NCBI GenBank assembly: GCA_023231475.1
Contig: JALJEE010000499.1
Location: 1 to 53,388 of the forward strand
DNA: 53,388 bases
Source of the DNA: Seison nebaliae
Taxonomy: Eukaryota
Direction: 5' to 3'
Made by a program: the position numbers and the translations under genes. The notes under the pieces are model-generated. The model did not search any database, was not told the origin of the DNA, and saw nothing but the letters and a program-made list of their open reading frames with translations. Positions 9,952-45,218 of this stretch are shown in pieces. The stretch's first letter is position 1, and each line of letters begins with the position of its first letter.

Positions 9952-10079
9952 ATATTGAATGTGATTGAAATTCAAATTATATTTATAACATTTCATTTAT
10001 AATCCAAAGAAGAAAGATGAATAAAATTTTTTGATTGAAATAAAAAATCTTTTCAAATACAATTGGAAATAAGAAAACT

Positions 10080-10704: not shown

Positions 10705-10908
10705 ATTTAAAATTCAATTTTTACAATAATCATTTTGTCTTTCTATTATAATAATTTCTGATTGTTTTATGAACAAACGAAAGTTCAACATAAATTGATT
10801 ATATATATAAAATAAGCGCAAAAACTTAAATTTTCTAATTTCCTAAAATTCACTCGATTGACATTTTTTTTTGTTTAAATCACTTACTCTCGTCGTATTG
10901 ATTGAAGG

Positions 10909-18722: not shown

Positions 18723-21700
18723 ATGTTATTTCGATTAACGAGGAGAGTGGTAGGAAGATGTGGTCAATCCATTTATTCCTTCCACACATCAGGAATTGAC
18801 CGAAATCAATTAGCTCTTCAGGAATTGTCGAAAATTTTGGAGGTAGTCTCAATTGACAGTGGAAAATTTAGTCATTTAAAAGAGAAAGTTCGAAGAAAGG
18901 AAGATGGATTGAAATTAATTGTAAATAATTTGAACGAGAAGAAATTAATTGAAAGAAGACGACGAATTAATGAAGATATTTTAGCGAAAGTCGATGCATA
19001 TCTTTTCACATGTCAACGAGAGAAGATTGTGGAGATGTTAGAGAATGAATTGACAAATAAGAGGAATGGTCATCAACGACAATTGAGTTCGATTTATGTT
19101 GTTAATTATATTTTAACTCAAATGTTTCACGAGAAGGAAATCAAACGATATCAGATCGAGAAGATTATGAATTTGTGTCAGAAGAAATTGGCTTATTCGT
19201 TGAATACTCATTTACTTCTATTAGGAATCGAATGTCGATTGAGAAATGGAAATGAAATGATAAATGAAGAGAATGATGAATTGATCAATTTATATAAGAA
19301 TTTGAGGAAAGAAATTTATAAATATTTTTATCGAAATGATCGAAATCAATATTTATCAATCAATATCGATCATTGGCAAATGGAGACATTTGATAAACGA
19401 CTTTTTCTCTTATTGACAAGAGATAATGAAATTCGTTATCAATTGAAACGATGTGATAAATTATATCGGAAATATTGTGACGATCGAAATATTTATGGTT
19501 CTCTCAATCATATGAGTCTTATGAGTCTATTGGAAAAATTATCGAGAAATCAAGAAAGAATGAAAGGAACTCAATTAATTAATCGTCGAAATTTAGAATC
19601 TCATGAATCATTTCATCTTTTCAAACTTCAATTAGAAAGAGAATTATCATTATCAGTTCGTATTCCTTCAATTTCCGTTGAGGAAATTCATATGAGAAAT
19701 AAACGGAAATTGAAGAAGAAGAAATGGAAAATGAAGATGGATGATGATATGAATGTGAAAGATGAATTGAAAAAGAATTATTATAAACAAAAATTGAAAT
19801 TGTTGTTGATGAGAAAATTCGAGAAATTGAGAAGTCGACGAAATGATGACGATAATGTCTGGTTTCAATTGATGCCAATGCAGAAATATATCGATATGTT
19901 ACTCAATTTTTATATAGAGCAATTATGTTTGGGAGGAAAGGGATCGAGTGAGAGTGAAGAATTTGTTAATACTAATCAATTATCTCATCGCTTGGGTGTG
20001 ACTTTATATCAACAATATTATCAACATCGTCTACCAAATCGTCAATTACAATTGTTATATATGAATTATTTGAATCGAATGAAAAATGATAATCATATTA
20101 ATGGTCGTCAATTATGGTCGTCTCTATTGAACGAAGACGATTTGTCGTTGAATAATTATAAGAAATTGTCACTACTCCCAATTTGGTCATATCGTTTAAC
20201 ATCGAGATTAGGACGGAAATTATTCAATTTAATTTTCTTCATTAATCCAAATGATGAATATGAATTATTGGAAAAGAAGAAAAAGAAAGGAAAAGATGAA
20301 AAATTACCAGCACTCTTATATGGAATTTATCGATTGGAAAGTCAATTGAAAAAAGGAATGAGAAAAGAAGAGAAGAAATCGAATGAAAAAGATTGTCCGC
20401 CCCAAATTTGTGTACCTGACTTTTGGAAAGAAGTTTTCAATGAAACTCATTATTTATCATTTCCAGCTGCTCATCTTCCTATGATTATTCCACCAATTCC
20501 ATGGCATGAAGGTAATCGTGGTGGTGGATTGTTGTTGGGACAAACGAATAAATTAGTTCGAATTGCTCATTCGGCTGATGAGAGTTCATTAATTCAAACT
20601 TCCATTTCATCATATCGACCATTCTCGACGATATTCGATTCGCTCAATATTCTCAGTTCATGTCAATGGAAAATTAATGAATTCGTTTTAGATATTGCCA
20701 TCAAAATGTTTCAATGTGGAATATCATCAGAAGCGTTGGGTCTTCCTAAATCGCCCAACGAATTCCTCCAAAACATTTCCACACCATCACCACCAAATCT
20801 CTCCAATTTCACCCCATTGGAATATATGGAAGAATTGAAGAAATGGAAAGAGAAATATGTGAGGATTTTAAAGAAACAGAAAGAAATGAAAAAAATAAAA
20901 AACGAACAATATTCATTGTGGTGTATGACTTGGTATCAATTATCGATTGCTAATTATTTTCGTACGAATATTATTTGGTTACCACATAATTTGGATTTCC
21001 GTGGTCGAGTATATCCATTACCACCACATTTCTCTCATATGGGATGTGATTTAGTACGAAGTTTATTGAATTTTCATGAAAAAAAGAAATTGGGAGAAAC
21101 TGGTCTCGATTGGTTAAAGATTCATTTGACAAATTTAACTGGTCATTTGAAAAAAGCGACATTAATCGAACGAAAAGAATATGCAGAATTGAATATTTCA
21201 AAAATTATTTTGTCAGCAGAAAATCCGTTAAATGAATCATGGTGGATGAATAGCGATGATCCATGGCAAACATTGGCATGTTGTAAAGAGTTGATGGAAG
21301 CAATGAAATGTGATGATCCCAAAGAATTTTTGTCTTCCTTACCAATCCATCAAGATGGTAGTTGTAACGGTTTACAACATTATGCCGCATTAGGTCGAGA
21401 TATTGATGGTGCACGATCAGTGAATGTTTTAGGTAGTGGACGTCCACAAGACGTTTATTCTGATGTTGTTGATCGTCTTTTATCACTCATCAAAAAAGAC
21501 GATAGTCAATTAGCGAATTTGACGAGGAAAATTATTACAAGAAAAACCATCAAACAAACGGTAATGACGACGGTTTATGGTGTAACTCCATTTGGTGCTC
21601 GCAAACAAATTAGTAAACAATTGAGATTGAATCCAATAATAATTGAGAATAGTGAAAATAATGAATTGATTCCACAATTGGCATTATTTTTACAGACTCA

Positions 21701-22301
21701 AACATTCCGTTCTCTTAGAGAAATGTTCACATCGACAAGATCCATCCAAAATTGGTTAGTATCGTGTGCGAAAGATATCGTTAAATTGAGAAATGAACCT
21801 GTAAAATGGATTACTCCTTTAGGTCTTCCTGTTGTTCAACCATATTTCATAAAGAGAACAGAACGAATCAATTCAGATAATTATCTCAAGGATAAATTCT
21901 CATCATCATCTCGACCGATAATGAGGAAACAATTGAATGCATTCGCACCTAATTTCGTCCATTCTCTCGATTCAACTCATATGATGTTAACTGCATTATC
22001 GTGTGGAAAGGAAAATATTAGATTTGTATCGATTCATGACAGTTTTTGGACACATGCCATCGATATCGATCAAATGGGAAAGATATGTCGAGAGGAATTC
22101 TTACGATTACATTCTTCTGACATATTAGAAGATTTATCGAAACAATTTATTTCTAATTATTCTTTCCGTCAAAATGAATTTAAAAATTCTCCTTTAATGA
22201 CTGAAGAAATGAATCGTTTCAATCGACTCATTCAACAAATTCCGAAAAAGGGACAACTTAATATAAATGACGTTCTCGATTCACTCTACTTCTTCTCATA
22301 A
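18723..22301 (+). CDS. POLRMT: Mitochondrial DNA-directed RNA polymerase (T7-like single subunit), intronless
   Basis: Arg-rich presequence-like start; LPHNLDFRGRVYP, PIHQDGSCNGLQHYAAL, RKTIKQTVMTTVYG, PNFVHSLDSTHM, IHDSFWTH, terminal YFFS. Confidence 0.97.
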   Translation: MLFRLTRRVVGRCGQSIYSFHTSGIDRNQLALQELSKILEVVSIDSGKFSHLKEKVRRKEDGLKLIVNNLNEKKLIERRRRINEDILAKVDAYLFTCQREKIVEMLENELTNKRNGHQRQLSSIYVVNYILTQMFHEKEIKRYQIEKIMNLCQKKLAYSLNTHLLLLGIECRLRNGNEMINEENDELINLYKNLRKEIYKYFYRNDRNQYLSINIDHWQMETFDKRLFLLLTRDNEIRYQLKRCDKLYRKYCDDRNIYGSLNHMSLMSLLEKLSRNQERMKGTQLINRRNLESHESFHLFKLQLERELSLSVRIPSISVEEIHMRNKRKLKKKKWKMKMDDDMNVKDELKKNYYKQKLKLLLMRKFEKLRSRRNDDDNVWFQLMPMQKYIDMLLNFYIEQLCLGGKGSSESEEFVNTNQLSHRLGVTLYQQYYQHRLPNRQLQLLYMNYLNRMKNDNHINGRQLWSSLLNEDDLSLNNYKKLSLLPIWSYRLTSRLGRKLFNLIFFINPNDEYELLEKKKKKGKDEKLPALLYGIYRLESQLKKGMRKEEKKSNEKDCPPQICVPDFWKEVFNETHYLSFPAAHLPMIIPPIPWHEGNRGGGLLLGQTNKLVRIAHSADESSLIQTSISSYRPFSTIFDSLNILSSCQWKINEFVLDIAIKMFQCGISSEALGLPKSPNEFLQNISTPSPPNLSNFTPLEYMEELKKWKEKYVRILKKQKEMKKIKNEQYSLWCMTWYQLSIANYFRTNIIWLPHNLDFRGRVYPLPPHFSHMGCDLVRSLLNFHEKKKLGETGLDWLKIHLTNLTGHLKKATLIERKEYAELNISKIILSAENPLNESWWMNSDDPWQTLACCKELMEAMKCDDPKEFLSSLPIHQDGSCNGLQHYAALGRDIDGARSVNVLGSGRPQDVYSDVVDRLLSLIKKDDSQLANLTRKIITRKTIKQTVMTTVYGVTPFGARKQISKQLRLNPIIIENSENNELIPQLALFLQTQTFRSLREMFTSTRSIQNWLVSCAKDIVKLRNEPVKWITPLGLPVVQPYFIKRTERINSDNYLKDKFSSSSRPIMRKQLNAFAPNFVHSLDSTHMMLTALSCGKENIRFVSIHDSFWTHAIDIDQMGKICREEFLRLHSSDILEDLSKQFISNYSFRQNEFKNSPLMTEEMNRFNRLIQQIPKKGQLNINDVLDSLYFFS

Positions 22302-25680: not shown

Positions 25681-28600
25681 TTATCTTAAACTTTTCCTGT
25701 GTTGATTTGTGGAGGAAATTAAACTTTTAATTTCATCAATTGCTGATATTTCGAACGTCGACATATTTACTTCTTCATTCGATAAGGACTCCGATTCAGA
25801 AGAAGCGGTTTTGTTATTATTGAAAAATCTCATATTTAATTCGGATCCAACCGTCTTCAATTTAAATTTCTATTTAAAATTAAATTTGTTATTTTCGAAT
25901 AAATCGAATAAAAAAACTTTTTTCACTTTCTCCCGTTTATGTTTCATATGCCACGAAAATTCGAGACATGCCATGATAAATCCAATTCCAATTCCAACAC
26001 AGAGAATCAGAAAAACTCCTCCAACATTCGCTAGACCTAAAGTTGTGGCATCATCGGTTTCACTCGTATCTTGAGAGATACATTTACCACCGCCTTTCTT
26101 CTTCTTCCACCATAAATTATAAAGTGATTGAATGTCTCCCATTTCTTGCATTTGTAATATACGATCGGAAAGTATATCTCTGAATGGTGAATCTATTTGG
26201 GATGAATATGAAATATTATTTGAAGAATAAAAGAAACTTGTTGGTGTTCCGATACCATATCCTTTCGACGCCAACAATCCTCCCACTTGAGTTAATTCGC
26301 AATCTCGTTGTATCATATAATTGATGGTTTTTGATTCCATAATAAATGCATATTTCCCTTCTTTAACTCGACGGAAACCTTCGCCATTACTTGGAACGAA
26401 ACAATCGGAACATTTCGCCATAAAATTATACATTCTTTCATACGTTGGTATTCGAGATTCCTTCGACGAATGAAATTATGAAATTTAAATAATAACAAAT
26501 AATTAATAACAATAAAAAATGATTGAGAAGATCCACCACGTAATGCTCCATATTTAATTTCAGTTTGTTTAGCTAAATCTTCCGCTCCCCGAATAGGCAA
26601 TTGCATTCGATTGGATGTGAGAAATGCGGCCAAATTTGCAGTATAAGATGAAACGATAATGAGACAGAAGAACCACCAGAAACCGCATAATAATCTCGTT
26701 GAGAATGCACGAATTGGAATTTCTGAACCTTGCTGCATAAAACAACCTAAATTGAACCAGAGAGCATTTAATAAAGTGATTTGATTTGTATCATCAATTT
26801 CTTCTGCTGAACAAGATTCAGGATTGTACCATTCGTAAGGAGAGAAACGAGCAATGATAAATAAACCAAAACTTATTCCTAAATATGCCGCCACAATATA
26901 TAACCAGATGTTGATAGAAAATGGTGATAAGAAGGAAAATAAATTTGAAGATTTCTTTTTACTTTTTTTAAAAAGAATTCCAATTCCAGATTCGAAAAAC
27001 GGTTTCGTAAAATCGATCACTTGTTCACGACTTAACGTTATGGTGAGATCACTTATGGCTAAATCAGCTTTCTAAAACAGATGAATTTCCGGGGAAATTA
27101 GAAAGTGAACGAACTCTTGTCATTAATTCGTGAATCATTCCATTCCAAACTTTTGGATTATTCTTCAACGGTTGTCCATGTTTTCCATCTTCAACTTGTT
27201 TAAATCGATAATTGAAAATGAAGTCATCTTTCTTCATTAATTCTTTTATTCTCAGAAATAAATCAACAGCAAATCCTTCAAATCGTTCATTATCTTTATA
27301 TTTATATGAATCATTCTTCAACATAATATATGGTTCAGTCTTGAAAATTTTCATAAAAATATCATAAAATTTCATTTATATTTAAATAATTATTAACAAG
27401 TTTCACTGACACAATCAATGTCATATTAGCCAAATACTCTTTTGTTATAATAACGTCTTCATTATAATTCCTTTCCAATAATACCGAATCTTTATTCACG
27501 GTTCCCAGTGAACGGAATTTCGAATATCTCAATTCCAAAACTTCGAATTCCACTTTCTTTAACGACATTCCACTTAATTTCCCATTAAAATTCTAAATTT
27601 AAATTACATTAAGAAATTAAATAAATAAATTAACGTTCATTTTAATCGTCTCCAGAAATCCATGGCCATATTTCCACGGTTTTAATTTGAGACAGGATAA
27701 TTTCTCGTCAAAACTAATTTGGGACTTGAGGACGATGTCCAACAAATAATTTCCCAGATCTAACAACAAAGAATGATTTAACTATTATGAAATAATTTAA
27801 CAATTCTAGATAATTTCATGAATATAACATATAACGAAAATGATGAAAATTTCTCAAATGTCGGAATTTTTGGATTATGTCCATTTCTTATATATTTCCC
27901 CATCGATTCCCCATACCATCGAACATAATTCGTATCGGAACGTTTCAATCTCAATACTGTTATATTTCCAATTGTATTATGGAAAGAATTCCAATTCATT
28001 GTGACAGAATCCTTTAAGAGAAATTTGTATTTTGAAAAGTTAAAAATTTCATTACTAAACTAAATTGACAATAAGATATTTTCGATAATTGTTGATTAAT
28101 TTACGTTTTAATGCCATTTCCATAATACTTCTCGTATTCTCATAATTGCAGTCGATGACTACCTGATTCTCCGTTGACTTCTCAATCAAATCAAATATGA
28201 AATCTTCATTCCCATTATATTCAAGACTGCTCAATATCGTTCCTTTTAGATCGATACGGAATGAGATCATTCGAGCAAATGAAACTGTATCATCAAAAAT
28301 ATAAAGAATTTCTTTCCATCGAAATTCTCTTAATAAGTTTTGCAGACTTTGTCTCACAACATCATATGATGGATATAAGGAAATGAAATAGTTCTGATCC
28401 AATACTAAATAATCAATATGGAAACAAGGAATATGGAAATTTTTGCAAATTGATGATAATTGAATTGCCGCTGGATTACCCACATTAGTTACGATTGCTG
28501 TGACACCTTTTGATAAGAGTTTACACACTAAAATGGAAATAAAAATTTGAAATATTTGTAAGAGAATCGAATGGTGAACTTGCACGATATGCTTTATATG

Positions 28601-28811
28601 CATTCCATGATTCAACATAATCGATAAAGAAAGAAATATTTTTAATTTTCGTGCTTGATTGATGTAATAATTTTGTTTGTTCATTCAATAAAGTTAGAGT
28701 ATAATCGATGGCATTCCGATCGTGAACATTATTTGATTTGAGTATAAATCCAATTTTGAATGAAAAGATCGGATTGATAATGAAGAGAATTAAAAGAAGA
28801 TACTTAATCAT
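25681..28811 (-). CDS. Ionotropic glutamate receptor, kainate/AMPA-like, multi-exon
   Basis: Signal peptide and ATD; RFEGFAVDL, WNGMIHEL, IDFTKPF, RFSPYEWYNP, M2 FMQQGS, M3 SYTANLAAFLT, LAKQTEIKYG, CELTQVGGLL, M4 LGLANVGGVF. Confidence 0.95.
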
Positions 28812-29624
28812 TCTTATAAACTTTCTTGTTATTGTTTGAAATATGTTTTATCTTGGAAAGAAGCATATTAAATGGAAGAAGATCTCCTGCTAAGATGAAA
28901 ACTAACAAAAATGGAAATATAAAAGTTTTTGAGTGTTCTCCATTGAAAGGCGTCTAAGCTCTTGAATGTGGGAACGCTTCGAATATTTTCATTCGGAACG
29001 TAATAGAACCAACTTAACCTAATTATCATGGAAGTAAAATAATTCGTCTTTTCTCTTATTATTAAATGTGATTGTATATTTTCTTTATTGAACACACATT
29101 TGTGAATGATATAAATTGACGAACATTTATGTTTTCATTAGATGTTCTGTATGAATGGAATCAAACGAAAATAAATATAATTCCACATTAATTACTTTCA
29201 CATTTTCAGAAAAATACCTTTCCAAATTATTTCACTTTCGTCGTCGGTCACTGTACGAATTAATAGGAAGTAAATCAATTCTTCATCTCTTTTATTCTCA
29301 ATTAATCAATACACTTCCTCTCACAATTCTGTTAGACATTTCCAATTAATCGATTGCTCATTTTTAGGAATGAACATTTAAAAATAAAACAAATTCTTCA
29401 CAATAAATATTAGTGATAAATCAATAATTATCAATTTAAGTTATTTTTCTTAAAGAAATCAAATCAAATTTTTTGTAAAACCATTAACGATTTAAAATCA
29501 ATTTTAATTCAACTTTGCGACATGTTGGTTCGAATGAAAATAAAAGTTTTAAAAGAATTGAAAATTTATTTTATGCTAAATAAACGATTAGATTAAATCT
29601 GATTATTTTTTCCATTTAATTCGT

Positions 29625-32600
29625 TTATAAATCGAAATGCATCCTTTTCATGACGGCATCAATATTTGCCTGTTGACGTTTAGCCATTTGGTGACGGAAT
29701 CGTCGCATTGTGTCACAGTTCAACATTTGTGCTTTGGAATGAGTTGATTTGGGGATTTTTTCGAATGTCGCTGCATCAACACATTCGGGATGATAGATCG
29801 TGTTCATTAATGGAAGATTATCTGATTCTGGAGTGACTAAAATCTGTGAAAGAGAAATCAATTTGATTTGTTTCATATGAGAGAAAATGAACTTCGGTTT
29901 TGGAACAAGCGATGACTGTAGTATCGTTCTTCAACGTACCATCTCGACCATAATTACATTGGATTACACTCTCACAATCATCAGGAGATCGGACATATAA
30001 TTTATAGTTCTGTTGAATATGACTCGCATCTTCATCTAATTCTAATGGACATTGGAATTGTTCGTCTTGGTATTCGGGTGGTAAGTCAGACATAGCCCGA
30101 TAATGAGTTGTATGATATTCTAATAAAGAGATTGAAAAGAGAGAATTTGAATAAATGAATTAACTAGAAATTGCATTACAAGAGAATGATCCACATGGTG
30201 AACAACATTTGGTCTTCTCATTGAAATGTTCTCCGGGTGGACAAACATGAGAATGATGGAAGCCTTGACTACAAATGACATACTTTCGGCAATCCAATGG
30301 ATGTGCGTAATAACCGTCTGGACGTCCACAACATGAGAATGCTGATTAAAAGGATAAAAATTGAAATTATAATTGAAATTAGTAGATGAAAGTACGAACA
30401 CCAGCAATTAGAGCCAGACCATCCAAAATTACAATTGTTTGGTCGACAAGCGGGTTGAACAGGTGCGATAGGTTTTGGTGGTGGTTTTGGATGTACATTA
30501 CAAATTCCAGTGACTGGACTACATCCGACTTGACATAATCCACATTTCTTAGCACAACCATATCCGCATGTGCCGACATTACATTCTTGAAATAGAATAT
30601 GATATTTTTCCTTGTTACTGATGAGACTAACGGTTGTAACAACTACTTCCAGTCCATCCTGCAATACATCCTGATGGGCATTGACCAGTGAATGTATCAC
30701 ATTGAACACCACCATTACAGTTGCATGGTTGGTCACAATATTTACCCCATTTCCCATTCTTACAGACTATAAGAAAGAAGAGAAATATTAACCATTATAA
30801 AAGTAGAAGGAAAGAAACGTTTAAGATATGATGCATCAAATTTAAATGTAGTTTCTTTTTGGAGTTCGAATGTTGTTTGGTTGCAGAAACAATCCGTTTT
30901 AGTTCGAATGATCTTTCGGTTGGTGACGGTGGTAATACCGAAATACAATTTCTTAGTGGCACATGGTTCGTATTTGATGAGTTTATTGCAATTGTTGTCT
31001 AATAAAAATAATTGATTAAATTATTTTCTTATATTTCAAATCTAACCATTGACACAAGCCACTTCCTTCATATACCAGATAATGACGGACATTTGTCTTG
31101 CTCCTTTGCAACTTGTTTGGACTTTCCAATCTCGACAATGATATTCTCGATTTGGCCAATGGTTACGATCTCGGTCAGATATGAATGCAAGAACTGATTG
31201 TTTTCCTGCTTCATAATCATTCAATGCTGCATAACAATCCGTTTGTAAAGTTAACTAAATAATGGAGTTATATATGTGTGTTGAGCTTGTGATAAAGTAT
31301 TAACTGTCAATTCAATAGCTCTCACATTTCCTGACATAGATACCGGTACGTAAATTCTACCAAATAAATATTCACCAGTTAAAATGGTTCTGTCATTGAT
31401 ACAGTTCACCGATCCAGTAGATAACATAGGCCATACAATATGAGCTTTACAGATTTGTTCTTTCATTGTCAAATGGACAAATGTTTGAGCGGCGAATCGT
31501 TGAGTGATGAAGTGAGATGGTTCTTGAGTATCACCAAAAACTTGATCACGGAAACCTTGAGTATCATAATCATTTCTCAAATTGACAACGGACAAATCTA
31601 CTCCACTTGACAAGAGTTTTTCTCTCAAATTATGATATTGGACTTGATTCACCCATGTAGTAGTGGTGAGACCTTGACTGGTTAACAAGACAATCTTTTT
31701 AGCGTGTCCAGATCGGCCAAATGCATTTAATCGGTCGACAGCTCGACAGATGGCATCATGATGATGACAACTTTCGGCACAACATCCTTGATGTCTAAGT
31801 GAGAATTTTTTCATTTTTTCTTCGACTTTCATTCTTAATTCTTCTCCGATCGATCGTTTAGACTGCCATTTATCCGTCAACTGAACAACTTCTTCGATTT
31901 CCTTTTCGGCATAAATCATGAAAGAAACTCTCGTTTGAGTATCCCAAATTTCGAGATGATGATTGTGTTCTCTATCGTCTAACCACGTGAGAAAATTGTG
32001 AAGATCATTCTCCAAATAATCTTTCGCGTAACATACATCAATTACAAAGATCACATCAGGATATTGTGTGCATTCTATGTTTGAAATTAGGTATTAAATC
32101 TTAAAATTTAAAATGATAATTTTAAACTTTCTAATTCGTTCATGAAATCGTAATTGTCGGCATCATAAATTTTTCCAAGATTTGATTCTGGTAATTCATT
32201 CGATACTTGTCTAAATTTCCAATAGGTTGAGAATTGATAGTCGCTATTTTCCGTAAATCGAGCAATGATCTCATTTGTCCATTTTTGATGAAGGATATAA
32301 TTCGCTGATAATGAGGCGAGATATGGGAAGTTATTCGGGTTAATTTGATTAAACATTGGGACAGTTTCAAATCCACAATCACATGCAAATTGATTGATTT
32401 CTTGCGAAGAAATTCCACAATTGTAAATCTGAAATAATATTAATTTTATTTATGGGAATTCTGAAAAGAACCGCATACAAATTGCTTTGAGTTTCAAAAC
32501 AAAGAGACATCATCCATTCGACTCGTCTTAAATAATGAGTAATATCTGCATATTTGTCTGCACATTTCAATTGTTTCGAATACATTTTATGGAAAGAAGC

Positions 32601-33944
32601 CCATACCAAGTCGTAATATTGTGATAATGTGTATTCGTTCATGGTATAATCGATTAAAGTATTATCGTAGAAGTTTTGACATCCACAACAACCAGTTGCT
32701 TCACATGGTTTACATTGAGGTGGTGGTGTGGTGATGCATGGTGGTGGTCGTGTTGGTGGGACGGTGCATGGTGTTGTTTCAGGTTTCTCGCAACAAACGT
32801 CTCGACAATCAACAGCTGCTGAAATCCAATCTAGTCCTAAGGTTGAGAAATGAAAAGTTGTTTTAAACTTTCAAATTAAAATGATCAAATGAGAACCATG
32901 TGATCTCTGACATTGTTTAGTGAACCAGCTATTTGCGTCGGGTAAATTGGAACATGCGTCAGGACAAGTTTGTTGTCTTATCGGTCGATAAATCGTTCGA
33001 ATTTTAACATCAAGTTCCAATACGGCACTGGATTGTGAACCTCTCAATTTCAATTTGTAATTGTATTCTTTCTTATGACTATCTGCCAATCGACCGACCG
33101 CTAATTTATCTAACACCTGATTATCGAAATGTACTTGACAATATGTCTCGTTCATTGTAGTAGACAAATCGCATCCAGCATCTAAAGATTTGAGGATATC
33201 ACCGTCTATATCTGTTTCTCCTTCTCCAAATTCGAATGACGGTATCAATTTCTCATCGGAGAAATGTTCAAATCGGAATTTGCCCATTGACACACCTTTG
33301 CAGTTATCCAAAAATACTGATTTTGGTTCAATCTAAATGAAATAATAATGAAATAAACAGAAATTAATTATTAAATAATTATTAACTGGATCTACTTCAC
33401 AGTCGATAATTTTGGATTCGGGTGCATTTAACCATTTGATTTCTGGTTTTTTCGGTTGGTAGTACAAATATTCCTTTGGATTGTACTATAAATGAGAGAC
33501 ATTAAATAATTTTTATTTGTCGCAAAACTTATTTTAACTTTATCATAACATTTGAATTCAGGAACCAATTCTTTGTTCTAAACAATAATAATTGTCTATT
33601 TGGGCTAATAAGTGAATAGACTAACAAAATCGAGAAGAATCTTCCCATTCGACATTGACATGCCGATGCATCTCCAACTAGACTTTAGATGAATGGCACA
33701 CATTTCTACATGAAAATAAAATGTTACTTTTAAGAACTCGTAAGTTGTTAGTAACCATTTTTCTGCAACGGAAACACAGTCGCGACATTGCTTTTCCAGC
33801 TAAGTCGACAGGGACTATAATGGACTCGATCTAGAAGATTTTCATTAGATAATAGTTATCTAATAAATGTTAATTCTAACGATGTGCTATATAAGCAAAT
33901 GTACTTGATACGAGACCAATTAATAGAATGGCCAATTTCATCAT
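29625..33944 (-). CDS. Large secreted modular protein A: Cys-rich N-terminus, Pro/Thr hinge, vWA-like, EGF-like repeats, two chitin-binding (CBM14/peritrophin-A) modules; many exons
   Basis: Signal MMKLAILLIGLVSSTFA; PDVIFVID...KKIVLLTSQG vWA strands; CPSGCIAGW and CGYGCAKKCGLC EGF-like; CGRPDGYYAHPLDCRKYVICSQG...CPPGEHFNEKTKCC CBM14 at about 30177-30340. Confidence 0.78.
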
Positions 33945-34193
33945 TATTCAATCTTTTTAATTCTCTTAAATTTCTTCTCAGGCTTTTATATTCGCTATAT
34001 TTATGTTAAGGTCAGAGGGCAAGTAAACGTCCGTCAAGGGGATTTCCTTCGACAATAAATGGTACGAGTTCGATTCTGCTTAATCTTCATACCTTCAGAT
34101 TATTTATGAGTAAAGTTCATCCAATCTTATGTAAACATTAGATTGTATTTAATGGAACACTTCCGTGACAATATCTCAAAAAGAATATTCATA
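33945..34193. promoter_or_regulatory. 249-bp bidirectional promoter region
   Basis: Lies between two divergent ATGs. Contains TATAAAAG on the minus strand (33983-33990), GGGGATTTCC (34038-34047) and GTAAACA (34131-34137). Confidence 0.6.
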
Positions 34194-37100
34194 ATGAAAT
34201 CGATGAATTCAGCCATTTGGCTGTTGACAACAGTATTAGTCGGATCATTAGGTAATAAACTTATTTTATCTTTCATCCTAATCTAATGTAAAATTTTATA
34301 CAGTTCAATCTGCGTATGGAAATAATGCATGTGAAGTCGCTCGAATTACATTGGATCGACGAGTCGTATATTTGAGTTATTTTACTCCTATTTTTCGCTG
34401 GTGAACTATAACGATCATGTTCTAGATCGAATATTAAAAGAATGTACATTGACCGCCAAAGACATTGTCAGTGACGAAATGAGTAATTGTAGACGATTTG
34501 AGATCGATCTACCCGGTGCCACAGAAGATAAGATTCACATTACTACGCACTCAGTTAGATTAGAAGAAATTAAGGAAATTATCATTCTTTTTATCGTAAT
34601 TAGCGGCCAAGTTTCCGAGTTCAATGTACTTCCGGTGGAAATATCCAGGTTCATCTCGTAAGATTCCACCGAAAACTATATTTTTTGCTTTTACGTTATC
34701 TTTTCAGTACAAAGTTGAAATTAAACAAATCACATTGTTCATCAAGGAATTGGACGAGAAATCACCTCGAATCGACTGCAATTCAAAGAGAGTTTATTAA
34801 ATATCTGTTCTTCCAATTATATTCATTTCAATTGTTCCATTTTTAGTACATTGCTCCAGGAACTGAAGTTCCCGGATGTTATGACAAAGAAGGTCGAGAT
34901 GCAAACGGTGGATTCCACGTGTACTCGTCACCTGAAGTGGAAATAGAAAAAATATTTTTACCTGGTGAAAGCCGAAAAAACTCTATCGATACTCAAATTA
35001 TGCCTTCTTATGAAGTGATGGAAAACAACGAGAAACTCAAGGTCACACCATTCTTCTTATTTGTCGGAAAGGAATTCTATCGACATGGTTCACAACACTC
35101 TATGTACAAATTCGCAGACAATTTGAACATTAAAGTTCAATTTTTCTGATTTTATCTCTTCAATTTATTTTTTCAATTGATTTCTAGTGTAATTTTGGTA
35201 ATTCTTGTTATCAAGACTTCTGTGTGCCATGTTCTTTTAATGTACGTCCCGAACCGGGAATGTGTAGTTCATCAGCTGGATATAACTGTTCAAATTCTTT
35301 CTGTCAATGGGCTGCTACATCAAACCAACAGTGCCGTCATTCACGTTAACTTTCTCAAAACATTTTGATTTATATCGGATAATTTAATAATTGTAGCGAG
35401 TGTATGTTTAGAAGAAGTGTGTCAAATTAAACCTCATTGTGTATATACGTGCAAGTGTAATGCCATTGTTGATCTGACTGTTAATGTTGAAACTTGTGGT
35501 GCAATTGCCGTCGAGGCTGTCTTAGAAAAAGTATCGAATTTACATCCGTTAATTTTCACATGATATGGTTTTTAATTACATTTTCAATTTCAGAGAATTT
35601 TGTGTTGATCAATATCAAATGATGTTGTGGGCTTGGATCCAAACATTATCGAAGAATCCATGCAAATCCTGTGGAGGTATTTGGGGAGTTAATTATTTAA
35701 AATTTTCTTCCATTATTCTAATTCTTCAATAAATTAGATCACTAAAGATGAATTTAATTCGTATGGAAATCATCCAATTTGTCGAAGCTATTCTCATATT
35801 AATTATGAGGATTTAGATAAACCTTTCTATTCCGGAATTTGGGCATCAGCTAAAGCCATGTCAATGGGTCATGGATCAATCGATGATTTAGTCACACCAA
35901 ATGCCGTTGTACATCCAGCATATCGACCACAATACGAAGAATTATTCAACCGAGAACGAGGATGCCCAAATCGTCCACATGTCAGAATCGCATTAGATAA
36001 TTTGGGATGGGAATCAGAATCATCTTACAGACGACAAACGAATTTGGTAAAGGGATTCGTCGATAAGATGTACATCGATAACAGTTTCTTTTCTTATTCT
36101 CAACGTAATTGAATTAAATTTTTAAAAATATAAAGATGAAGCGAAAATCGAAATGTTTGTTATGGAACATGGATTAAAGAGAGCATTCTCCATCGGATTA
36201 GGAAAAGAACGAGAAGACAACAAAGAACAAGTTCGACAAGCTCATCAAACATTGGACGGTTTGAACCATCGAAGAATGGAAATGAGAAGTGATATGGCTC
36301 ATATGAATTTGGAAGAAGCAATTATGGATTTCGAGAAAATAGATACAAGTTAAATTTTAATTTTTGCATTTTTTGAAATTGCTGGAAATCGCTTAAATTT
36401 TAGCCGCACCAAAAGTTCTCGTTATCGTACCAAAATCAGAAGCATTCGCTTCAAAGAAATGGACAGCATTCGCTGAAGAACATGGAGTAACATTGGTCGT
36501 TGTTTCAGGAAATCAAGCTCATGAACGAATGGTTCATTCACCAACTCGACACTTTATCGGATCAAATTCAATGAAAGATTGGTCTTCCATTTGTTGGGGA
36601 CTCCAAACGGCTGTATGTCAAGCACCGAGAATTTATTGTGTTGCCGACGGACAAACAGGAGACATTTGTATTCAAGGTGAATATAATCCATTAGCTGACT
36701 TCAAAATTGTCATTCGAAATTGGCAACAATACAGTATGAAATATGAATTGAATGTTGGAGGAAAAATCATGGCTGGTAACCAAGTGGCTTACACATGTAC
36801 TAAGATTGATAATCCATTTATTAATAGTCATTATTATCCAACTCCATTGGACAAACACGCCATTCTTTTCGAATCTATTGGTTTATTATTATTATCATTT
36901 TCAAATTCTCTATATTTTTTTATGGATTTTAGGTGGATCAATTACATTTTGTATTAAGAAAGATATGAATATCGGATCATCTCTCAAAGTAACTGGAGGA
37001 CCAATTGATCTTTGTGAATTACCTTGTTATCGACTTCGTGTTAAAGTCAAATATTCTTTGACAATCAGAGGAAAGGCATGTCCACCTGGCTATTATGGAT

Positions 37101-38245
37101 CGGATTGTACATGTAAATGTAATTGTTTAGATGGTATTTGTGATATGAAAACAGGTTGTTGTGAGAAGAAACTTTGTCAACCTGGATTTTTCGGTCAACA
37201 ATGTGGAACTAGTTAGAAATTAAAATAATTCAAATTAATTAATTCTCCTTCAGCTTGTCCACCATCATCATGGGGACACCAATGTCAACACACTTGCAAC
37301 ACAATTGACGATTCGAATATGTGTCATCATGTATATGGTCCAAAAAAAGATTGCACATGTCAACATGGATATACGACTGAGTCAAAATGTCAAAGTTAAA
37401 TAATTTTTTTTGAAACGATTTGAAATTATAGAAATTTATTGTGATTAGCATGGAATCCAAAACATATCCCGTACAACCGACGAACTGGATCACCATATGA
37501 AGGTGACGTTTACTACATCCAAACTGAGGACAAATTAGTGAGAAAAACTTGTCCATATGACGAATTGTCAAACCGAGCAACAGTTTTCGATGATAAGAAG
37601 GGAATGTGCGTACCAATCGATGAGAGTAGTCTCAATAATGTTGTAGCATTCAGACAAGGTTTAATATTTTTTGTTAATTCTTTTAAATTTGACTCATTTT
37701 CATTCTTAGCTGCTCGACCACTCCCATATATGGAAGATGGAGAATCGCAATTTATTGTGAGCAACTCAAACAATGACACGATTCGACAAATGAGAATTGA
37801 TCAGTTAATGATGCAAGAACATCATGACCAGAAATACTATTTCTGCCCAGACAAATTGGCCGATGGAGAAATTAAACTCGAAGAAGATATTATTATGTAT
37901 CGTCACACTAAAGATTCATGTGAGGGATATCTCCAATGTATGTATGATGGCATCACTGGTAAATTGAAGAAATCGGAAGCTTACTCCTGTCCAACAAATT
38001 CCATCTTCAACATGAAATTGGCAACAAGACAAGAAAATACGGGCTCAGCTCAAACGGGTTGTATCGACAAATCATTAAGTTTCCGATATCGTGTCACATC
38101 AACACATCCGGACAAGGAACGATTACAATGCGATGCCACAGTCGATTATCGAATTGATATGAGAAAATTAAACGCTGGAAATACAAACATGCGAACCATC
38201 TTCGAGAAGAGTACACTCATTAACAGTGTCAATTATCATGTCTAA
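34194..38245 (+). CDS. Large secreted modular protein B, diverged paralog of A (vWA-like, EGF-like, two CBM14-like modules); many exons
   Basis: Signal MKSMNSAIWLLTTVLVGS; PHVRIALD...FVDKM...PKVLVIVP; CPPGYYGSDCTCKCNCLDGICDMKTGCC; CPDKLADG...DSCEGYLQC...SCPTNSIFN. Confidence 0.75.
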
Positions 38246-38453
38246 AATTCTTCAATAAATTTAATGATTAAATAAATTTAATTTTGAATGACAAATTATT
38301 CTTCTATTTATGTTTAGGAAATTAAGAGAAGGAAATTTTCTTTTGTTCATCGAAATATAATTTGAAAAACTTTAATAAATTATTATTCGTTTATTATTAT
38401 TCCTCAGAAAACTTTCATCAATTCTGTTAATTAATCATCAATAATTAATTACA

Positions 38454-38815
38454 TCACCAACAAATCCAATGTCCTCCATTCTTTCTCAACGTATTGAAAC
38501 AGTTCCGTTTGACGACCATGGAAGAATTATCATCAGGCATTTCCAATGAATCATCACTACGTTTCTTCAATTGTGCCAATGGCAATGTGTTGTACATGGA
38601 ATTGCCACTCAGATGAGCTAAGAGCATTCTTGCCAACATCTTCTCACGAACTTCTCCCTTAAACAAAATTTAAAAAATTAAAGTAAATTAAAATATTTAA
38701 AAAAAAAAACTCGTTTTTCATTACCAATATCTTGCATTGATGGATATGCATATAAGTTCATAAAGAAGTTTAAGAACAAAAATAATACGGTTATTCTACA
38801 ATATTTACTATTCAT
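38454..38815 (-). CDS. Neuropeptide/peptide-hormone precursor, 2 exons
   Basis: Signal peptide (...FLFLNFFMNLYA-YP); KR, KKR and KR cleavage sites; C-terminal NCFNTLRKNGGHWICW; intron 38658-38710; TATAAATA about 80 bp upstream. Confidence 0.8.
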
Positions 38816-39395: not shown

Positions 39396-42300
39396 TTACA
39401 AATGTAAGAACATCGGTCGTCGATTAATGTCACGTCTGACTAATTCCCAAATTTCTCGATTATTCTTTTTAAGTTCGGAGAAAAGTTGTTTCAATAAATA
39501 TGATTGATGGAATTTTTCGAACATGTTCATCGTTTCATTTATCATGTTCATAATTCCAGTTGACATTGGAGATGTATAAGTGACTCCTTGATGATTGATA
39601 TTAATACTAAATTTATTCAAGAGATTAATACAACGACTGAACATGGATATCGTATAATTTGCGAGTGGAATTAAATTGATACATTTCAAATATGGTTTCA
39701 TTGTATTATCTACTGGTCGCATGAGATTGTTATTGATAACTCTCATTCGTTTCGTCCATGTCATTTGAACGGGAATCTTACCCGCCAAACGCAATGGACT
39801 TGTCCAATCGTTTTTCCTCAAATAATAATTCGGTTCTCGATGAACCATTTTATTGATGATGACAGGAACATCCAACAAGAAATGATGAGCATATTTCAAT
39901 TGAAATGTGTCATATCTATAAGACGATCCGTTGCCGAATTGTAAGACACAATAAGTGAGATTATTGAGAGAATAGGAAATATTTTTCAATATGAGTGGAT
40001 CGGTGATAGAAGTGCAAACGGTTTCGATAAACTCGTCAAATTCTTTATCTCCCAAAAAGAAAAGTAATTGAATTGTCCATTCAATACCATCGGTATGTTT
40101 TGAGAAATTGCCAGAATAACTAAGTAATTTAATAGCAAGTAAACATACTTGAAATGATCGATATACATTTCTCTTAATATCAGCATTGTCATCATCACCT
40201 TTCAATAATTCCGTTTCGTCCACTGGTTTCTTCACTAATTGCAATTGTTGATGAACATGAGAACTATTTGGTTGAAAGAATGGTCTGTTACACAGACAAC
40301 AATCAGCAGCTGGTATTTCATTCTTTCTCAACACTAATGAATGTTCACGAACTGCCAATGCCTCCACATAAATGTCACACCAAAGACGTGCAATTTCAAA
40401 AAGAATTTCTGTATCATGAAATCCGCCCGGATCGTCCACTGAACGGTCGATAACACAATCTCTAATATTTGCAAAAAGTATTGGAGTGGATTTGATTGAT
40501 TCATAATATTTCCTTGCCGAATTAACGAGGAGACGACATCCTTCATCTAAACATCGATCTCCACCATATTCTACACATTGATGTAATAATTGTTTCGTTA
40601 TAAAATTAGTTAATTCATGTCCTCGTGATAATCCTTCGAAAGCGAATGTTACTATCCATCTCTTCAATGGACGATCGGAATGAGTGAGGAAATCCGATAA
40701 TCTTCCCAATTCATCTGTCGACAAAATACTTCGCCAACATCTGAAAAAGAATTTCATCAAATTATCCGGCAACACTTCTAAAATCTTTGCAAGAAATTGA
40801 GTATAGTCATTGAAATCGCGATGGAGCCAAGCCTCTTTATAAATTCCATTATACACTCCCATAGCATATAAAGTGATAAGGAGAACGAATACGACGGAAA
40901 TACATGTGTCAGTTTTTGAACGACAATGTGGCGAATATTGTGATGAGGACCAACTGGGACCGAAATGTAAACCAATATAAGGCTCATAACATGATCCGAT
41001 TGAACCCAACAACGTCGTCGATACTGATAATAACCATTCGAAATACCAGAAATTAATATTATAACCATGGCGATGATAGAACATGTTGTATTTGGGACGA
41101 TAATCTGAATCATTCATCTTTTCAATTCTTTCCGTTAATCGTTGAGAAATAGTGAAAAATATTTTATAATTTTTCAAATATTTTTCAAATAATTTATTTT
41201 CTTTCTCTTCCGAACAAATCGATCGGAAATCATTCCCCTCATCCTTCAACATTATACAATTTTCTTTTGTTGTATTTATCATTTGTTGAGGTTCCATCGG
41301 ACAAGTCGGTATATATTTCACTGGAAATTCAGTTACTCTCAAATAAATATTTGTCGATTCAATTTTGTGAAGGAATGAAAGTCCATCAGATTCAATTGAT
41401 ATGTCACTTATCATAGGGAAATAATGATTATGAATTGTCGTTGTAAATTCGGAGGGAACTTTCGAAATTTCCATTAATGGATCATAATACGAAATATTCT
41501 CCATTTGTACTGGTTCGTTCGTTGTTTTTAAATAATTATATAATCGGAAATTTTCCGTTCTCCATCGAATATACGAAAAATCATATTCATTTGTCATCCG
41601 TCTAATTTTCAATCTAATCTCATCAGAATCTTCAATTAATTGTGGATAAGCCGAACACAAATAATTTGAACTTGTACATTGTTTTGATGGAGAACTCGAA
41701 TTTTCTAATCGTTCACTAGTGGCACAATTGACACATGTATTATAATCATCACCTAATCGATTAGATGGATTAATCGCCGATCTTTTTTCATTTATTCGAA
41801 ATGATTCAACTTCCGATTCAGCTTCCGTTGTAGTTTCTTGAGGTTCCGATGACAATATATTAATATTTTGATATAATCGATGTTTATGTTGTTCAATCAA
41901 TAATGATGATTTGAGACGTTTAGCGAAATATGTGTCAGGTGTCGTCGTCTCAACATCATCACTACCTGAATGTGTTGACGATCTCATTGGTGGTACAGGA
42001 ATTGATCGGAAAACTTTATCATTATTTTCCATCCGTTTCTTCATCATGATCGAATCGTAAACACAAGACAAATGTTTATCGATTACTTCAATTCCGTTTC
42101 GAGAGAAATGTTGAGGAAATTCCATCGACAATTCATCCGAATCTTCTCCCAAATCTTCACTCCATTCAAAATGGATAATTGGAAGAAATTGACACATCTC
42201 CTCTTGGAAATAACGACGGAGATTCTCCGTAAAAAAATATGCTAATCGATTACCTACATTATTACGAAGATTAAAATTATAAAATGGATCGATGTCCAAT

Positions 42301-45218
42301 GTCATGTAATCAGGAGATTCAAAAAATTTATGGAATCTTTCATCTAATAGACACCATAAAATATATTTACATTCACTAATTCTCTCATTTTTAGTGATGA
42401 TATTAGAAAGAATAATTCGTTGTCTCATTCGAATTATATGAATGAGAAAATGACCTTTCGATTCTTCCATGATCGTTGGCATTTTCAATACATTCCCAAT
42501 AAATTTAATGAAATTCACACCGTTCTTATCATAGACACCATGAAAAGAATTATATACCCACCATAACGTTTCACATAATGCCAATGGAGGAATAGTTTCT
42601 ATGGAAATTTTATTTGTACGAATTTGATGATGATTTAAAATATTCTCATAAATCCAATTTCCTTTCGATAACATTAACAAAATGATTTGATGAATATTCA
42701 AATTTTTTAAATAATCAAGTGGATTCTTTTTAATTATTCCACATAAAATTCCATTTAATTGAGTTTGAATCATCCAACATGATTGTTCAAGGAATGGTGG
42801 AAACATTCCCATTCGTGGATAAAGAAGACCAAATAAACATAAACGAGCTGCCATTAAATTATCTAAATCGAAAACTATTGTTGTTGTTACTAATAATTTT
42901 AATTCCTTCATTATAATTATTCCATCAAAATGATTATAATATGAATGGGATTTGGTTTTTGAAAAATAATAACGATCATCATTTTTGATTCTTCTCAAAT
43001 AAAATGATTTAATATCATCAGATAATATCATTTTATTATCCGTCAATTTCAATTTATCATCATAAAATTTCAAATAACATTCTCCAACAATCAAAGCGAG
43101 AATTGTAGATAAATAATGATCACCATTCACATCGAGTGATTTGATGTTACTCATTAGAAGTGGTAAAATGTCTTCATTCCTTCCACTCAATTCATTATCG
43201 ATTTGATCGATATAATTAATTATTCCTCTTCGACAATTCTCATAAAGTTTTTCCATATATATCGGAATTTTTCCACGTGAATTTAAAGTAACTCGATAAT
43301 TCGTTTTGATTGCTACGGAATCTTTCTGAAAAATATTATTGATCGATCGCCATTCTCGAATATTTTCATTCTCCAAACCGATCAATCCACCAAATCGATT
43401 ATATAATCTCTTGATGATGGGATGATTAGATGAATAAATATATTCTTGTGGTAATCGTAAGAGAAGTCGTACATGATGAAATCCGAAGAAATAATTATGA
43501 TTATTAATTAAATTCAATTTAAACGAAACAATTTGACGATCCAATTCCGTCAAAACATCTAACACAACATTGAACATCATCGAATGTGTTTTATCATAAT
43601 GAATGGAAAGTGGAAATTCTGGTTCATTAAATGTTCTCAATTGTTCGTGAATGAATGGAGAATGATAGACTTTTAACCATAATTCCTCCAACTCCTCGAA
43701 TAAATTCCATACCAATTGAATTCGATGAGTTAATATTGTCTCATTAATCGGTTTATCACATTTGTAAGTGTAGGAGGAATGCCAATCGGAAACGACATTT
43801 GGAAGATTGATGAGAATTAATGTGAAATAATAAAGAGAACGATAATCATAATGAATCTTTTTAATTATTTCAAAATTGATGACTTGAAAGAAACTGAAAA
43901 TTTGAGGTGGAATTGGTCGTTGATATGTCAATTCATTAATTTTTGCATCGAACGCTTTTCGAATGAAATAAGTTTTTTGATCAAAAAAATCGATCATCGA
44001 TTGATATTCGTCTTTGAAATGATCGAGGAAAACGATATGTCCCATCGAATTCGCTTCCTTCATCATTCGAACGAATGGATTCATTATTAATAAATCATCA
44101 TCTTTCATTCCTTTCATTTTCATTGCCGTTTTCAATAAACAATAACAACGACTCAATATATCAGCACTAATTAAACGTTCTTTCTCTTTTATCCATTCCA
44201 CATCAACATAATTGAAAAGTTTCACTTCTTCTTTCGGTTTTTCTATCACGTCAATCATTTTCATAACATCATAAACTTCTTTCAATTCAACTTTCTTCAA
44301 TAAATTCAATGCCACTCTTCTTAAATGTTCGTGTGACAAATCTTCGAAAACCATCGATAACGGTAAACGATATTCGATTTGATGTGGATAAAATAATCTT
44401 TTCCAGAACACTTGCATCACATGAAGACAACAATAATCTCGTGATATTTCTGAAATCATATCGGATTGTGATTGAATACCTAAAACTCCTTCAATCTCTC
44501 CTTCTTTTCCCAACGGTCTCTTATGTTTATTGACATTGGGATAGATCGATGATGATGGTGCTGATAATGAATTGTTCATTTCTTCATTCTGTGATGAACA
44601 CAATCCACAATTGAATGAAGTTATTCGTTTCTTTGAAAATTTAATAAAAACTGGTACGGGTAATTTATGATCTTCTTGATATAATCCTCCATTCGCCACC
44701 ATCGCATAAATCGTCGTACCGATTTGATAAATATCTTTCACACTACCACTATTCATTAATTTCTCGAGGTAATCGGGAGAGAATGTACGATTGAGAATAT
44801 GCGTATAAAGTGTTCGTTCCACTTTGCGGAAAATGAATGACATATCGGAAGGAAATGAATAAATTAAAATTCTTAATTGTAAAAAATCAGGTAATGTCGG
44901 CCATATATCCATCAATTGTTTCAGAGTGAACTTACTCGCCAATATCGTACAACATCGATCAACTAAACAATTTTCGATGAGGAATAATGGTTTCAACTTT
45001 TTAACTTTGAGTGGAACTGGAATCGATACCTTCTCATTTCCATCATCTTCATCATCTTTTTCATATTCACCGTTTAAATATTTGGATTTGGGAAGGAGAA
45101 GTTGACCATCCTTCCCATAAATCAAACGAATATTCCTCTCACTAACATATCTACCAACAGTCTCCCAATAAGATTTCAACCATACTACGCTATTCGGCGA
45201 CGTCGATTCAGATATCAT
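39396..45218 (-). CDS. Zinc finger SWIM domain protein, ZSWIM4/5/6-like, intronless, 1940 aa
   Basis: BC-box/Cul-box-like LVDRCCTILA...LPDFLQLRILIYSFP; SWIM-like ITSFNCGLC...CCLHV followed by YRLPLS; TEILFEIAR. Confidence 0.78.
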   Translation of the reverse strand: MISESTSPNSVVWLKSYWETVGRYVSERNIRLIYGKDGQLLLPKSKYLNGEYEKDDEDDGNEKVSIPVPLKVKKLKPLFLIENCLVDRCCTILASKFTLKQLMDIWPTLPDFLQLRILIYSFPSDMSFIFRKVERTLYTHILNRTFSPDYLEKLMNSGSVKDIYQIGTTIYAMVANGGLYQEDHKLPVPVFIKFSKKRITSFNCGLCSSQNEEMNNSLSAPSSSIYPNVNKHKRPLGKEGEIEGVLGIQSQSDMISEISRDYCCLHVMQVFWKRLFYPHQIEYRLPLSMVFEDLSHEHLRRVALNLLKKVELKEVYDVMKMIDVIEKPKEEVKLFNYVDVEWIKEKERLISADILSRCYCLLKTAMKMKGMKDDDLLIMNPFVRMMKEANSMGHIVFLDHFKDEYQSMIDFFDQKTYFIRKAFDAKINELTYQRPIPPQIFSFFQVINFEIIKKIHYDYRSLYYFTLILINLPNVVSDWHSSYTYKCDKPINETILTHRIQLVWNLFEELEELWLKVYHSPFIHEQLRTFNEPEFPLSIHYDKTHSMMFNVVLDVLTELDRQIVSFKLNLINNHNYFFGFHHVRLLLRLPQEYIYSSNHPIIKRLYNRFGGLIGLENENIREWRSINNIFQKDSVAIKTNYRVTLNSRGKIPIYMEKLYENCRRGIINYIDQIDNELSGRNEDILPLLMSNIKSLDVNGDHYLSTILALIVGECYLKFYDDKLKLTDNKMILSDDIKSFYLRRIKNDDRYYFSKTKSHSYYNHFDGIIIMKELKLLVTTTIVFDLDNLMAARLCLFGLLYPRMGMFPPFLEQSCWMIQTQLNGILCGIIKKNPLDYLKNLNIHQIILLMLSKGNWIYENILNHHQIRTNKISIETIPPLALCETLWWVYNSFHGVYDKNGVNFIKFIGNVLKMPTIMEESKGHFLIHIIRMRQRIILSNIITKNERISECKYILWCLLDERFHKFFESPDYMTLDIDPFYNFNLRNNVGNRLAYFFTENLRRYFQEEMCQFLPIIHFEWSEDLGEDSDELSMEFPQHFSRNGIEVIDKHLSCVYDSIMMKKRMENNDKVFRSIPVPPMRSSTHSGSDDVETTTPDTYFAKRLKSSLLIEQHKHRLYQNINILSSEPQETTTEAESEVESFRINEKRSAINPSNRLGDDYNTCVNCATSERLENSSSPSKQCTSSNYLCSAYPQLIEDSDEIRLKIRRMTNEYDFSYIRWRTENFRLYNYLKTTNEPVQMENISYYDPLMEISKVPSEFTTTIHNHYFPMISDISIESDGLSFLHKIESTNIYLRVTEFPVKYIPTCPMEPQQMINTTKENCIMLKDEGNDFRSICSEEKENKLFEKYLKNYKIFFTISQRLTERIEKMNDSDYRPKYNMFYHRHGYNINFWYFEWLLSVSTTLLGSIGSCYEPYIGLHFGPSWSSSQYSPHCRSKTDTCISVVFVLLITLYAMGVYNGIYKEAWLHRDFNDYTQFLAKILEVLPDNLMKFFFRCWRSILSTDELGRLSDFLTHSDRPLKRWIVTFAFEGLSRGHELTNFITKQLLHQCVEYGGDRCLDEGCRLLVNSARKYYESIKSTPILFANIRDCVIDRSVDDPGGFHDTEILFEIARLWCDIYVEALAVREHSLVLRKNEIPAADCCLCNRPFFQPNSSHVHQQLQLVKKPVDETELLKGDDDNADIKRNVYRSFQVCLLAIKLLSYSGNFSKHTDGIEWTIQLLFFLGDKEFDEFIETVCTSITDPLILKNISYSLNNLTYCVLQFGNGSSYRYDTFQLKYAHHFLLDVPVIINKMVHREPNYYLRKNDWTSPLRLAGKIPVQMTWTKRMRVINNNLMRPVDNTMKPYLKCINLIPLANYTISMFSRCINLLNKFSININHQGVTYTSPMSTGIMNMINETMNMFEKFHQSYLLKQLFSELKKNNREIWELVRRDINRRPMFLHL

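Follow-up and report, generated by a model that had tools for sequence, protein, structure and literature searches.

A head-to-head pair of old paralogs encoding predicted secreted proteins with vWA-, EGF- and CBM14-type regions in the rotifer Seison nebaliae

The stretch of DNA analysed here (the window) comprises 53,388 nucleotides of Seison nebaliae (assembly GCA_023231475.1, contig JALJEE010000499.1, forward strand), which are AT-rich, gene-dense and of animal type. Two genes, referred to as A and B, diverge within it from a spacer of 249 bp, and their sequences indicate that they are old paralogs derived from an inverted duplication. Splice-aware models of both genes were made from the window sequence alone and then compared with NCBI proteins. 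The model of gene A was identical to its NCBI counterpart across all 1186 aa, while that of gene B (1092 aa) became identical once a single donor was shifted by 9 nt. The start codons lie at 33944 (A, minus strand) and 34194 (B, plus strand), and the stops at 29625 and 38245. The genes and their features are as follows; residue numbers refer to the respective protein.

29625..33944, minus strand: gene A, 16 exons, 1186 aa; NCBI KAI3388464.1, SNEBB_009645, hypothetical protein, Seison nebaliae
Minus strand: gene A exons 1-8, at 33944-33881, 33830-33756, 33705-33626, 33577-33539, 33485-33387, 33332-32897, 32836-32472, 32428-32128
Minus strand: gene A exons 9-16, at 32074-31305, 31254-31047, 30998-30819, 30766-30632, 30585-30400, 30341-30165, 30119-29893, 29843-29625
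33891..33944, minus strand: predicted signal peptide of A, where 19-residue hydropathy reaches its maximum for the protein (1.85)
32128..33880, minus strand: A residues 22-486; six-Cys beta-type part, Cys-rich knot, Pro/Thr hinge and predicted helical part, matching no family
31449..32072, minus strand: A residues 488-695, vWA-fold domain without MIDAS (metal ion-dependent adhesion site); D499-V-C-Y-A, His591 at the Thr position, LTSQG instead of LTDG
30400..30764, minus strand: A residues 874-978, EGF-like repeats of laminin/Tie2/SCARF type, below the Pfam cut-off
30165..30341, minus strand: A residues 983-1034, CBM14 (peritrophin-A), 33.4 bits against a cut-off of 22.1; Pro at the position of chitotriosidase Trp465
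29715..30051, minus strand: A residues 1062-1157, CBM14-like module of enlarged size with six cysteines spaced 24-5-16-24-21, recognised by alignment with that of B
33945..34193: ATG-to-ATG spacer, 249 bp, which must contain both 5' ends and is a likely shared promoter
34100..34193: B-proximal part of the spacer, 94 bp, to which a divergent haplotype of low depth is about 90-95% identical
34194..38245, plus strand: gene B, 16 exons, 1092 aa; NCBI KAI3388465.1, SNEBB_009646, hypothetical protein, Seison nebaliae
Plus strand: gene B exons 1-8, at 34194-34251, 34304-34375, 34426-34553, 34604-34648, 34708-34791, 34847-35134, 35188-35344, 35397-35547
Plus strand: gene B exons 9-16, at 35594-35687, 35738-36083, 36136-36348, 36404-36880, 36933-37211, 37254-37394, 37449-37658, 37710-38245
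34194..34251, plus strand: predicted signal peptide of B; hydropathy 1.39, the highest in the protein
34304..35962, plus strand: B residues 20-434, collinear with the N-terminal region of A; intron 5 at the identical place (C+4, C-x14-C)
35963..36618, plus strand: B residues 435-617, marginally supported as a probable vWA-like domain; D446-N-L-G-W, no MIDAS
37079..37394, plus strand: B residues 754-843, EGF-like repeats of laminin/Tie2/SCARF type, below the Pfam cut-off
37449..37658, plus strand: B residues 845-914, decayed CBM14-like module with two of six cysteines kept; weak (z 2)
37844..38131, plus strand: B residues 960-1055, CBM14-like module of enlarged size with six cysteines spaced 24-5-16-23-22

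Each gene has 15 introns, all of 42-60 nt, with a GC content of 0.22 as against 0.38 in the exons. The donors show an unusual preference, being GTT rather than GTA in 28 of the 30 introns. In the protein databases searched, KAI3388464.1 and KAI3388465.1 each formed a one-member cluster. A literature search for both accessions and locus tags found neither accession; of 18 papers with a matching string, the 17 listed concern plants or chemistry. Contigs of low depth, resembling the window at about 85-93%, covered both genes (29400-38500; 33600-34560) in all five DNA-like runs, and two further runs gave no cover. These may represent a second lineage or haplotype of S. nebaliae, a species for which two strains have been described (PMC8351084). 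Among 34 coding differences listed for the divergent contigs (42 further entries lie outside this count, and 3 of the 34 lie in, or are common with, a main contig), 24 fell at codon position 3 (p = 1e-5) and 25 were synonymous; in the first exons the figure was 10 of 15. Therefore, both reading frames are under selection. That the genes are artefacts, i.e., fragmented or pseudogene calls, was rejected given the open spliced frames and this third-position bias. The divergent haplotype could also serve for estimating dN/dS (the ratio of nonsynonymous to synonymous substitution rates) and for building profiles.

The relationship between A and B was clearest at the C-terminus. BLASTP aligned A 872-1176 to B at 22% identity (E = 1.4e-8). 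Their last modules were identical at 30 of 106 positions (28%), scoring 93 as against 30 in cysteine-fixed shuffles (z about 10), and none of 2000 such shuffles reached the real score; these modules resembled each other far more than they resembled the ordinary CBM14 of A (z 1.4-2.5). The EGF regions aligned at z 4-6, while the N-terminal, helical, vWA and post-vWA segments, and the sequence surrounding intron 5, gave no pairwise alignment above chance. Gene structure extends the comparison: three introns occupy the identical place and phase in both genes, namely in the N-terminal region (four residues past the first Cys of the C-x14-C pair), within the EGF rod, and between EGF and CBM. Phase also agrees for the first five introns of each gene. 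The order of signal peptide, unassigned N-terminal half, vWA-type, EGF and CBM14-type regions is likewise common to both. These intron places and phases indicate that homology reaches beyond the alignable modules, and the simplest reading of the gene structure is a whole-gene inverted duplication. A preliminary description of this locus had proposed two divergent genes separated by 249 bp, similar last modules and an ancient duplication; the strands, coordinates, start codons and stops were confirmed, the motifs it quoted were present, and the duplication gained the three matching introns in addition to the last-module similarity.

Both proteins are predicted to be secreted without a membrane anchor. 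The signal peptides were called from hydropathy alone, and in each case the hydrophobic N-terminus was the hydropathy maximum, which bears out a secretion signal as suggested earlier. A transmembrane receptor was rejected, since no stretch of either protein was more hydrophobic than its signal peptide. Pfam, PHROGs, NCBIfam and PDB sequence searches and the ESM Atlas returned nothing usable for the approximately 470 N-terminal residues or for the domain following the vWA, so the N-terminal regions stay, as first described, unrecognised by the searches run; nor was any enzyme family matched in A or B. A resemblance of the N-terminal region to cadherin was at shuffle level against a single bacterial cadherin-like profile (218 and 108 of 500 shuffles as good); this test, like that for a GH19 enzyme described below, was prompted by motif likeness and used one narrow phage or prokaryotic profile.

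Pfam gave no vWA match in either protein. A test profile of 24 vWA domains drawn from 80 metagenome loci scored A at 12.9 bits, a value reached by none of 300 shuffles. The nearest entries to A 488-743 in the ESM Atlas were Ku-N and Integrator 13/14-type clusters (0.90-0.92), nine of the ten best belonging to one clan. AlphaFold models from shallow alignments were unusable for the vWA (pLDDT 35, pLDDT being the model's own confidence score) and for the helical region preceding it (pLDDT 36); fold searches with the former gave generic alpha/beta matches (best Z 5.1, root-mean-square deviation 3.3, 81 aligned), and those with the latter were of no use either. A vWA domain in A is well supported by the sequence profile and the ESM Atlas. 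In B such a domain is likely though marginal, because the match is in register and collinear with that of A. The canonical MIDAS of vWA domains consists of five ligands, DxSxS...T...D. One of the five, the first Asp, is kept in both A and B, in agreement with the earlier view that neither domain has a MIDAS. Within 31700-32040 of gene A, Cys501 and His591 stand at two of the ligand positions and adjoin a CC-x3-CHHH stretch; as speculation, they might provide a disulfide staple or else a modified metal-binding site.

Among the CBM14-type modules, A 983-1028 passed the cut-off of Pfam PF01607 with six cysteines. The last module of B scored 26.4 bits against PF01607 in one reading frame and 20.1 bits as an exon alone, while the last module of A and the first of B gave no Pfam CBM14 match; both last modules are about twice the usual CBM14 length. 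In chitotriosidase, the residues that matter most for chitin binding are described as Pro451, Leu454 and Trp465 (PMC5459812). The CBM14 of A keeps equivalents of Pro451 and Gly453. It aligned to the PDB entries for the chitotriosidase chitin-binding domain (6SO0), EHEP (8IN3) and Der p 23 (4ZCE) at E = 0.001-0.08, EHEP being the best match (E = 0.0013). The vWA + EGF + CBM14 order given in the preliminary description holds, with the qualifications that vWA and CBM14 are both weaker in B, that the EGF repeats fall below cut-offs, and that the vWA is not seen by Pfam.

Searches for relatives recovered little beyond the queries. The vWA exon of A matched itself alone among 1.84 billion representatives; one of 1509 candidates for A 22-1186 and one of 264 for the last exon of B were confirmed, in each case the query itself. 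A metagenome scan produced 194 pattern matches, none of them confirmed, and no Pif/BMSP sequence was among the matches of the A and B searches. Because the searches with A and B also missed the neighbouring paralog, rotifer relatives as distant as B is from A would have been invisible to them.

The head-to-head layout is kept in the divergent haplotype, as one contig of 266 nt joins exon 1 of A to the B side of the spacer. The B-proximal 94 bp carried 5 differences among those listed (at most 9), whereas a B contig differed at 14 or more of 67 third positions; the nominal p of 0.005 is optimistic, since only alike contigs enter the comparison and differences at their ends are unlisted. The spacer contained no notable inverted or direct repeat. 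The window holds six head-to-head spacers (206, 249, 482, 613, 1272 and 1660 bp), that of A and B being the second shortest, and spacers of 153-255 bp occur in all gene orientations.

With about an even chance, A and B are predicted-secreted, disulfide-rich and likely non-enzymatic adaptors in one chitin-containing extracellular structure. Both genes would be switched on in the same secretory cells by the 249-bp spacer. The C-terminal CBM14-type modules, carried on the EGF rod, would dock to chitin or a related glycan, A with its complete CBM14 supplying most of the grip. The vWA domain, lacking MIDAS Mg binding, and the N-terminal half would bind matrix proteins independently of metal, and the enlarged last module, being the best conserved between A and B, could provide the contact between them or with the matrix. 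The likeliest site would lie in the animal itself, either the jaw apparatus of the pharynx or the cuticular lining; gnathiferan jaws are reported to be chitinous, and Gnathifera is named after them (PMC5431905). Direct pairing of A with B in a heteromer is possible though doubtful, and is not needed by the adaptor reading. The stronger proposal, that A and B form an obligate heteromeric scaffold under one bidirectional promoter and organise chitin in trophi or attachment cement, their N-terminal halves being new domain types, is distinctly unlikely; if true, these would be the first named structural proteins of the gnathiferan jaw or of seisonid adhesion. A literature search on rotifer and gnathiferan chitin structures found no paper on their structural proteins.

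Several observations weigh against the adaptor reading. Leu454 and Trp465 of chitotriosidase correspond to Glu1017 and Pro1028 in A, and none of the four CBM14-type modules has an aromatic residue at the Trp465 position, the other three having Pro or Asp two residues past the fifth Cys. Full-length B gives no CBM14 match in Pfam. Against the vWA profile B scored 3.6 bits, and 3 of 300 shuffles, as well as one control region out of six, scored no lower. Both EHEP and Der p 23 are reported not to bind chitin (PMC10619976). This likeness is not decisive, because CBM14 chitin binders are said to use differing, non-conserved residues (PMC10619976). The chitinous structure proposed in the preliminary description is plausible for a gnathiferan, but with the non-aromatic Trp465 position and the non-binding EHEP, chitin binding by the modules of A and B is not secured. 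The roughly 470 N-terminal residues without a family could conceal a catalytic domain, and the jaw or cuticle site is suggested by the zoology of the animal and not by this locus. As to co-regulation, the A-proximal 142 bp of the spacer are not conserved (124 unlike letters in the divergent haplotype), and 4 of 21 junctions between predicted genes in the window measure 249 bp or less. Two secreted thioredoxin-like paralogs also stand head-to-head in the window, 206 bp apart (8427-9951), and the layout of A and B is therefore not special within it. The co-regulation that had been claimed is weakened by these short spacers and this second pair, and has only indirect support: the divergent haplotype retains the layout and 94 bp of the spacer.

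These points bear differently on the alternatives. The layout could be a mere scar of inverted duplication in a very compact genome, A and B being subfunctionalised matrix proteins that act independently, without co-assembly or any need to be expressed together. The thioredoxin-like pair, the short spacers in every orientation, the confinement of spacer conservation to the B-proximal part and the divergence of most of A and B past pairwise significance all favour this. However, both copies are intact, selected and still adjacent after very long divergence, and 249 bp leave scant room for two separate promoters; this explanation is unlikely, though it carries real weight. It is improbable that the pair instead faces the host, gripping the chitinous cuticle of Nebalia as a glue or lectin made in glands for attachment or egg cement, even though seisonids are small rotifers that live on leptostracan crustaceans (PMC8351084). 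Secretion is predicted, the protein tips are of glycan-binding type, and no relative was found in free-living animals, but blank searches that missed the neighbouring paralog say little. Moreover, both proteins have the composition expected of folded domains; apart from the short Pro/Thr hinge, they contain no glue segments that are repeat-rich or of low complexity, and crustacean chitin is located beneath an epicuticle.

Two further alternatives concern the modules themselves. That the CBM14-type modules bind no chitin, A and B being protein- or polyphenol-binding extracellular or gut-lumen factors, would agree with the missing aromatic platform, with non-binders among the nearest solved modules, and with three of the four modules being decayed or enlarged. 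This is nevertheless very improbable, since the module of A is a clean Pfam CBM14 that keeps the Pro451 and Gly453 equivalents, and the residues used vary among binders (PMC10619976). The helical region before the vWA, predicted to be all-helical by a low-confidence model, bears a likeness by eye to GH19 motifs and has a Pro/Thr hinge in front, which raised the idea of a remote lysozyme/GH19 chitinase-like domain and of A as a chitin-remodelling enzyme or pseudo-enzyme. Against the single phage GH19 lysin profile it scored no better than shuffles (equalled by 232 and 500 of 500), the best profile-profile score, from one of eight set-ups, was matched by 3 of 60 shuffles, and the ESM Atlas gave no usable match; this idea is exceedingly improbable. 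Adaptors in a chitin-containing structure thus remain the preferred reading, and A and B offer two concrete candidates for chitinous jaw or host-attachment proteins, with some 470 residues of unassigned structure apiece. For the present they are a lineage-specific pair on a familiar theme.

The neighbouring genes include a cluster of probably four short secreted thioredoxin-like genes (8427-11573), for which Pfam thioredoxin was weak in two pieces, above the cut-off in one and absent from the fourth.

8427-9061, minus strand: thioredoxin-like gene 1, head-to-head with gene 2 across a 206-bp spacer
9268-9951, plus strand: thioredoxin-like gene 2, head-to-head with gene 1
Near 10100-10600, and 10909-11573: further thioredoxin-like copies

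Genes for Arp3 (3515-4771), a phage-type (mitochondrial) RNA polymerase (18723-22301), a 1940-aa ZSWIM-like frame (39396-45218) and a zinc transporter (46879-48333) are intronless, as against 15 introns each in A and B. A search with Arp3 pointed to no more than an animal on a long branch. A telomerase reverse transcriptase-like frame (15397-17493), with RVT_1 and Telomerase_RBD just below cut-off, lies directly upstream of the RNA polymerase gene; an ionotropic glutamate receptor gene (25681-28811, minus strand) adjoins gene A downstream, and a weak match to the lipid-binding ML domain (E = 0.003) was found at 2694-3259.

Comparison with known systems places A and B beside several families without assigning them to any. 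The CBM14 of A shares the six-Cys pattern of 6SO0, 8IN3 and 4ZCE, while A and B have no equivalent of Trp465. B 752-797 aligns to EGF repeats of Tie2/SCARF1 type at E = 0.012-0.068, but neither protein has the transmembrane segment or receptor tail of those molecules. Like collagen IV alpha1 and alpha2 (PMC5395295), A and B are old head-to-head paralogs of predicted secreted matrix type with a C-terminal Cys module as their best conserved part; unlike them, they have no collagen helix or NC1, their layout is known from one species, and co-assembly would be by analogy. The parallel is one of gene layout and not homology, and, because short and head-to-head spacers recur in the window, a collagen-IV-like two-component scaffold of A and B stands as an analogy.

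The closest comparison is with Pif/BMSP, which the preliminary description had also drawn. Proteins combining vWA and chitin-binding (CB) modules are described as framework proteins, diverse in molluscs, brachiopods, nemerteans and phoronids, and Pif as carrying one CB and one CB-like module; the main text of that survey does not mention rotifers (PMC11291548). A rotifer lectin survey, in the text available, mentions neither vWA nor CBM14 (PMC8878817). A and B share with Pif/BMSP a signal peptide, a vWA upstream of a CBM14 and a degenerate CBM14-like module (the vWA of B being marginal), and the proposed role as organic framework adaptor (PMC11291548). In most Pif/BMSP members, however, a complete or partial laminin-G follows the CB modules (PMC11291548). 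A and B gave no LamG match in Pfam, and with 29 and 37 residues past the last Cys have no room for laminin-G. They differ further in the roughly 470 residues ahead of the vWA, in an additional domain and EGF before the CBM14, and in having no MIDAS, and no sequence link was found; Seison, unlike the hosts of Pif/BMSP, has no mineral shell. Since the laminin-G tail is missing and the front and middle differ, A and B are not classed as Pif/BMSP, and of the comparison first drawn it is the vWA and CBM14-type order that stands. A and B are a variant of the vWA + CBM14 theme that at best works in the manner of Pif/BMSP, and they document this combination in the lineage that is sister to the other spiralians.

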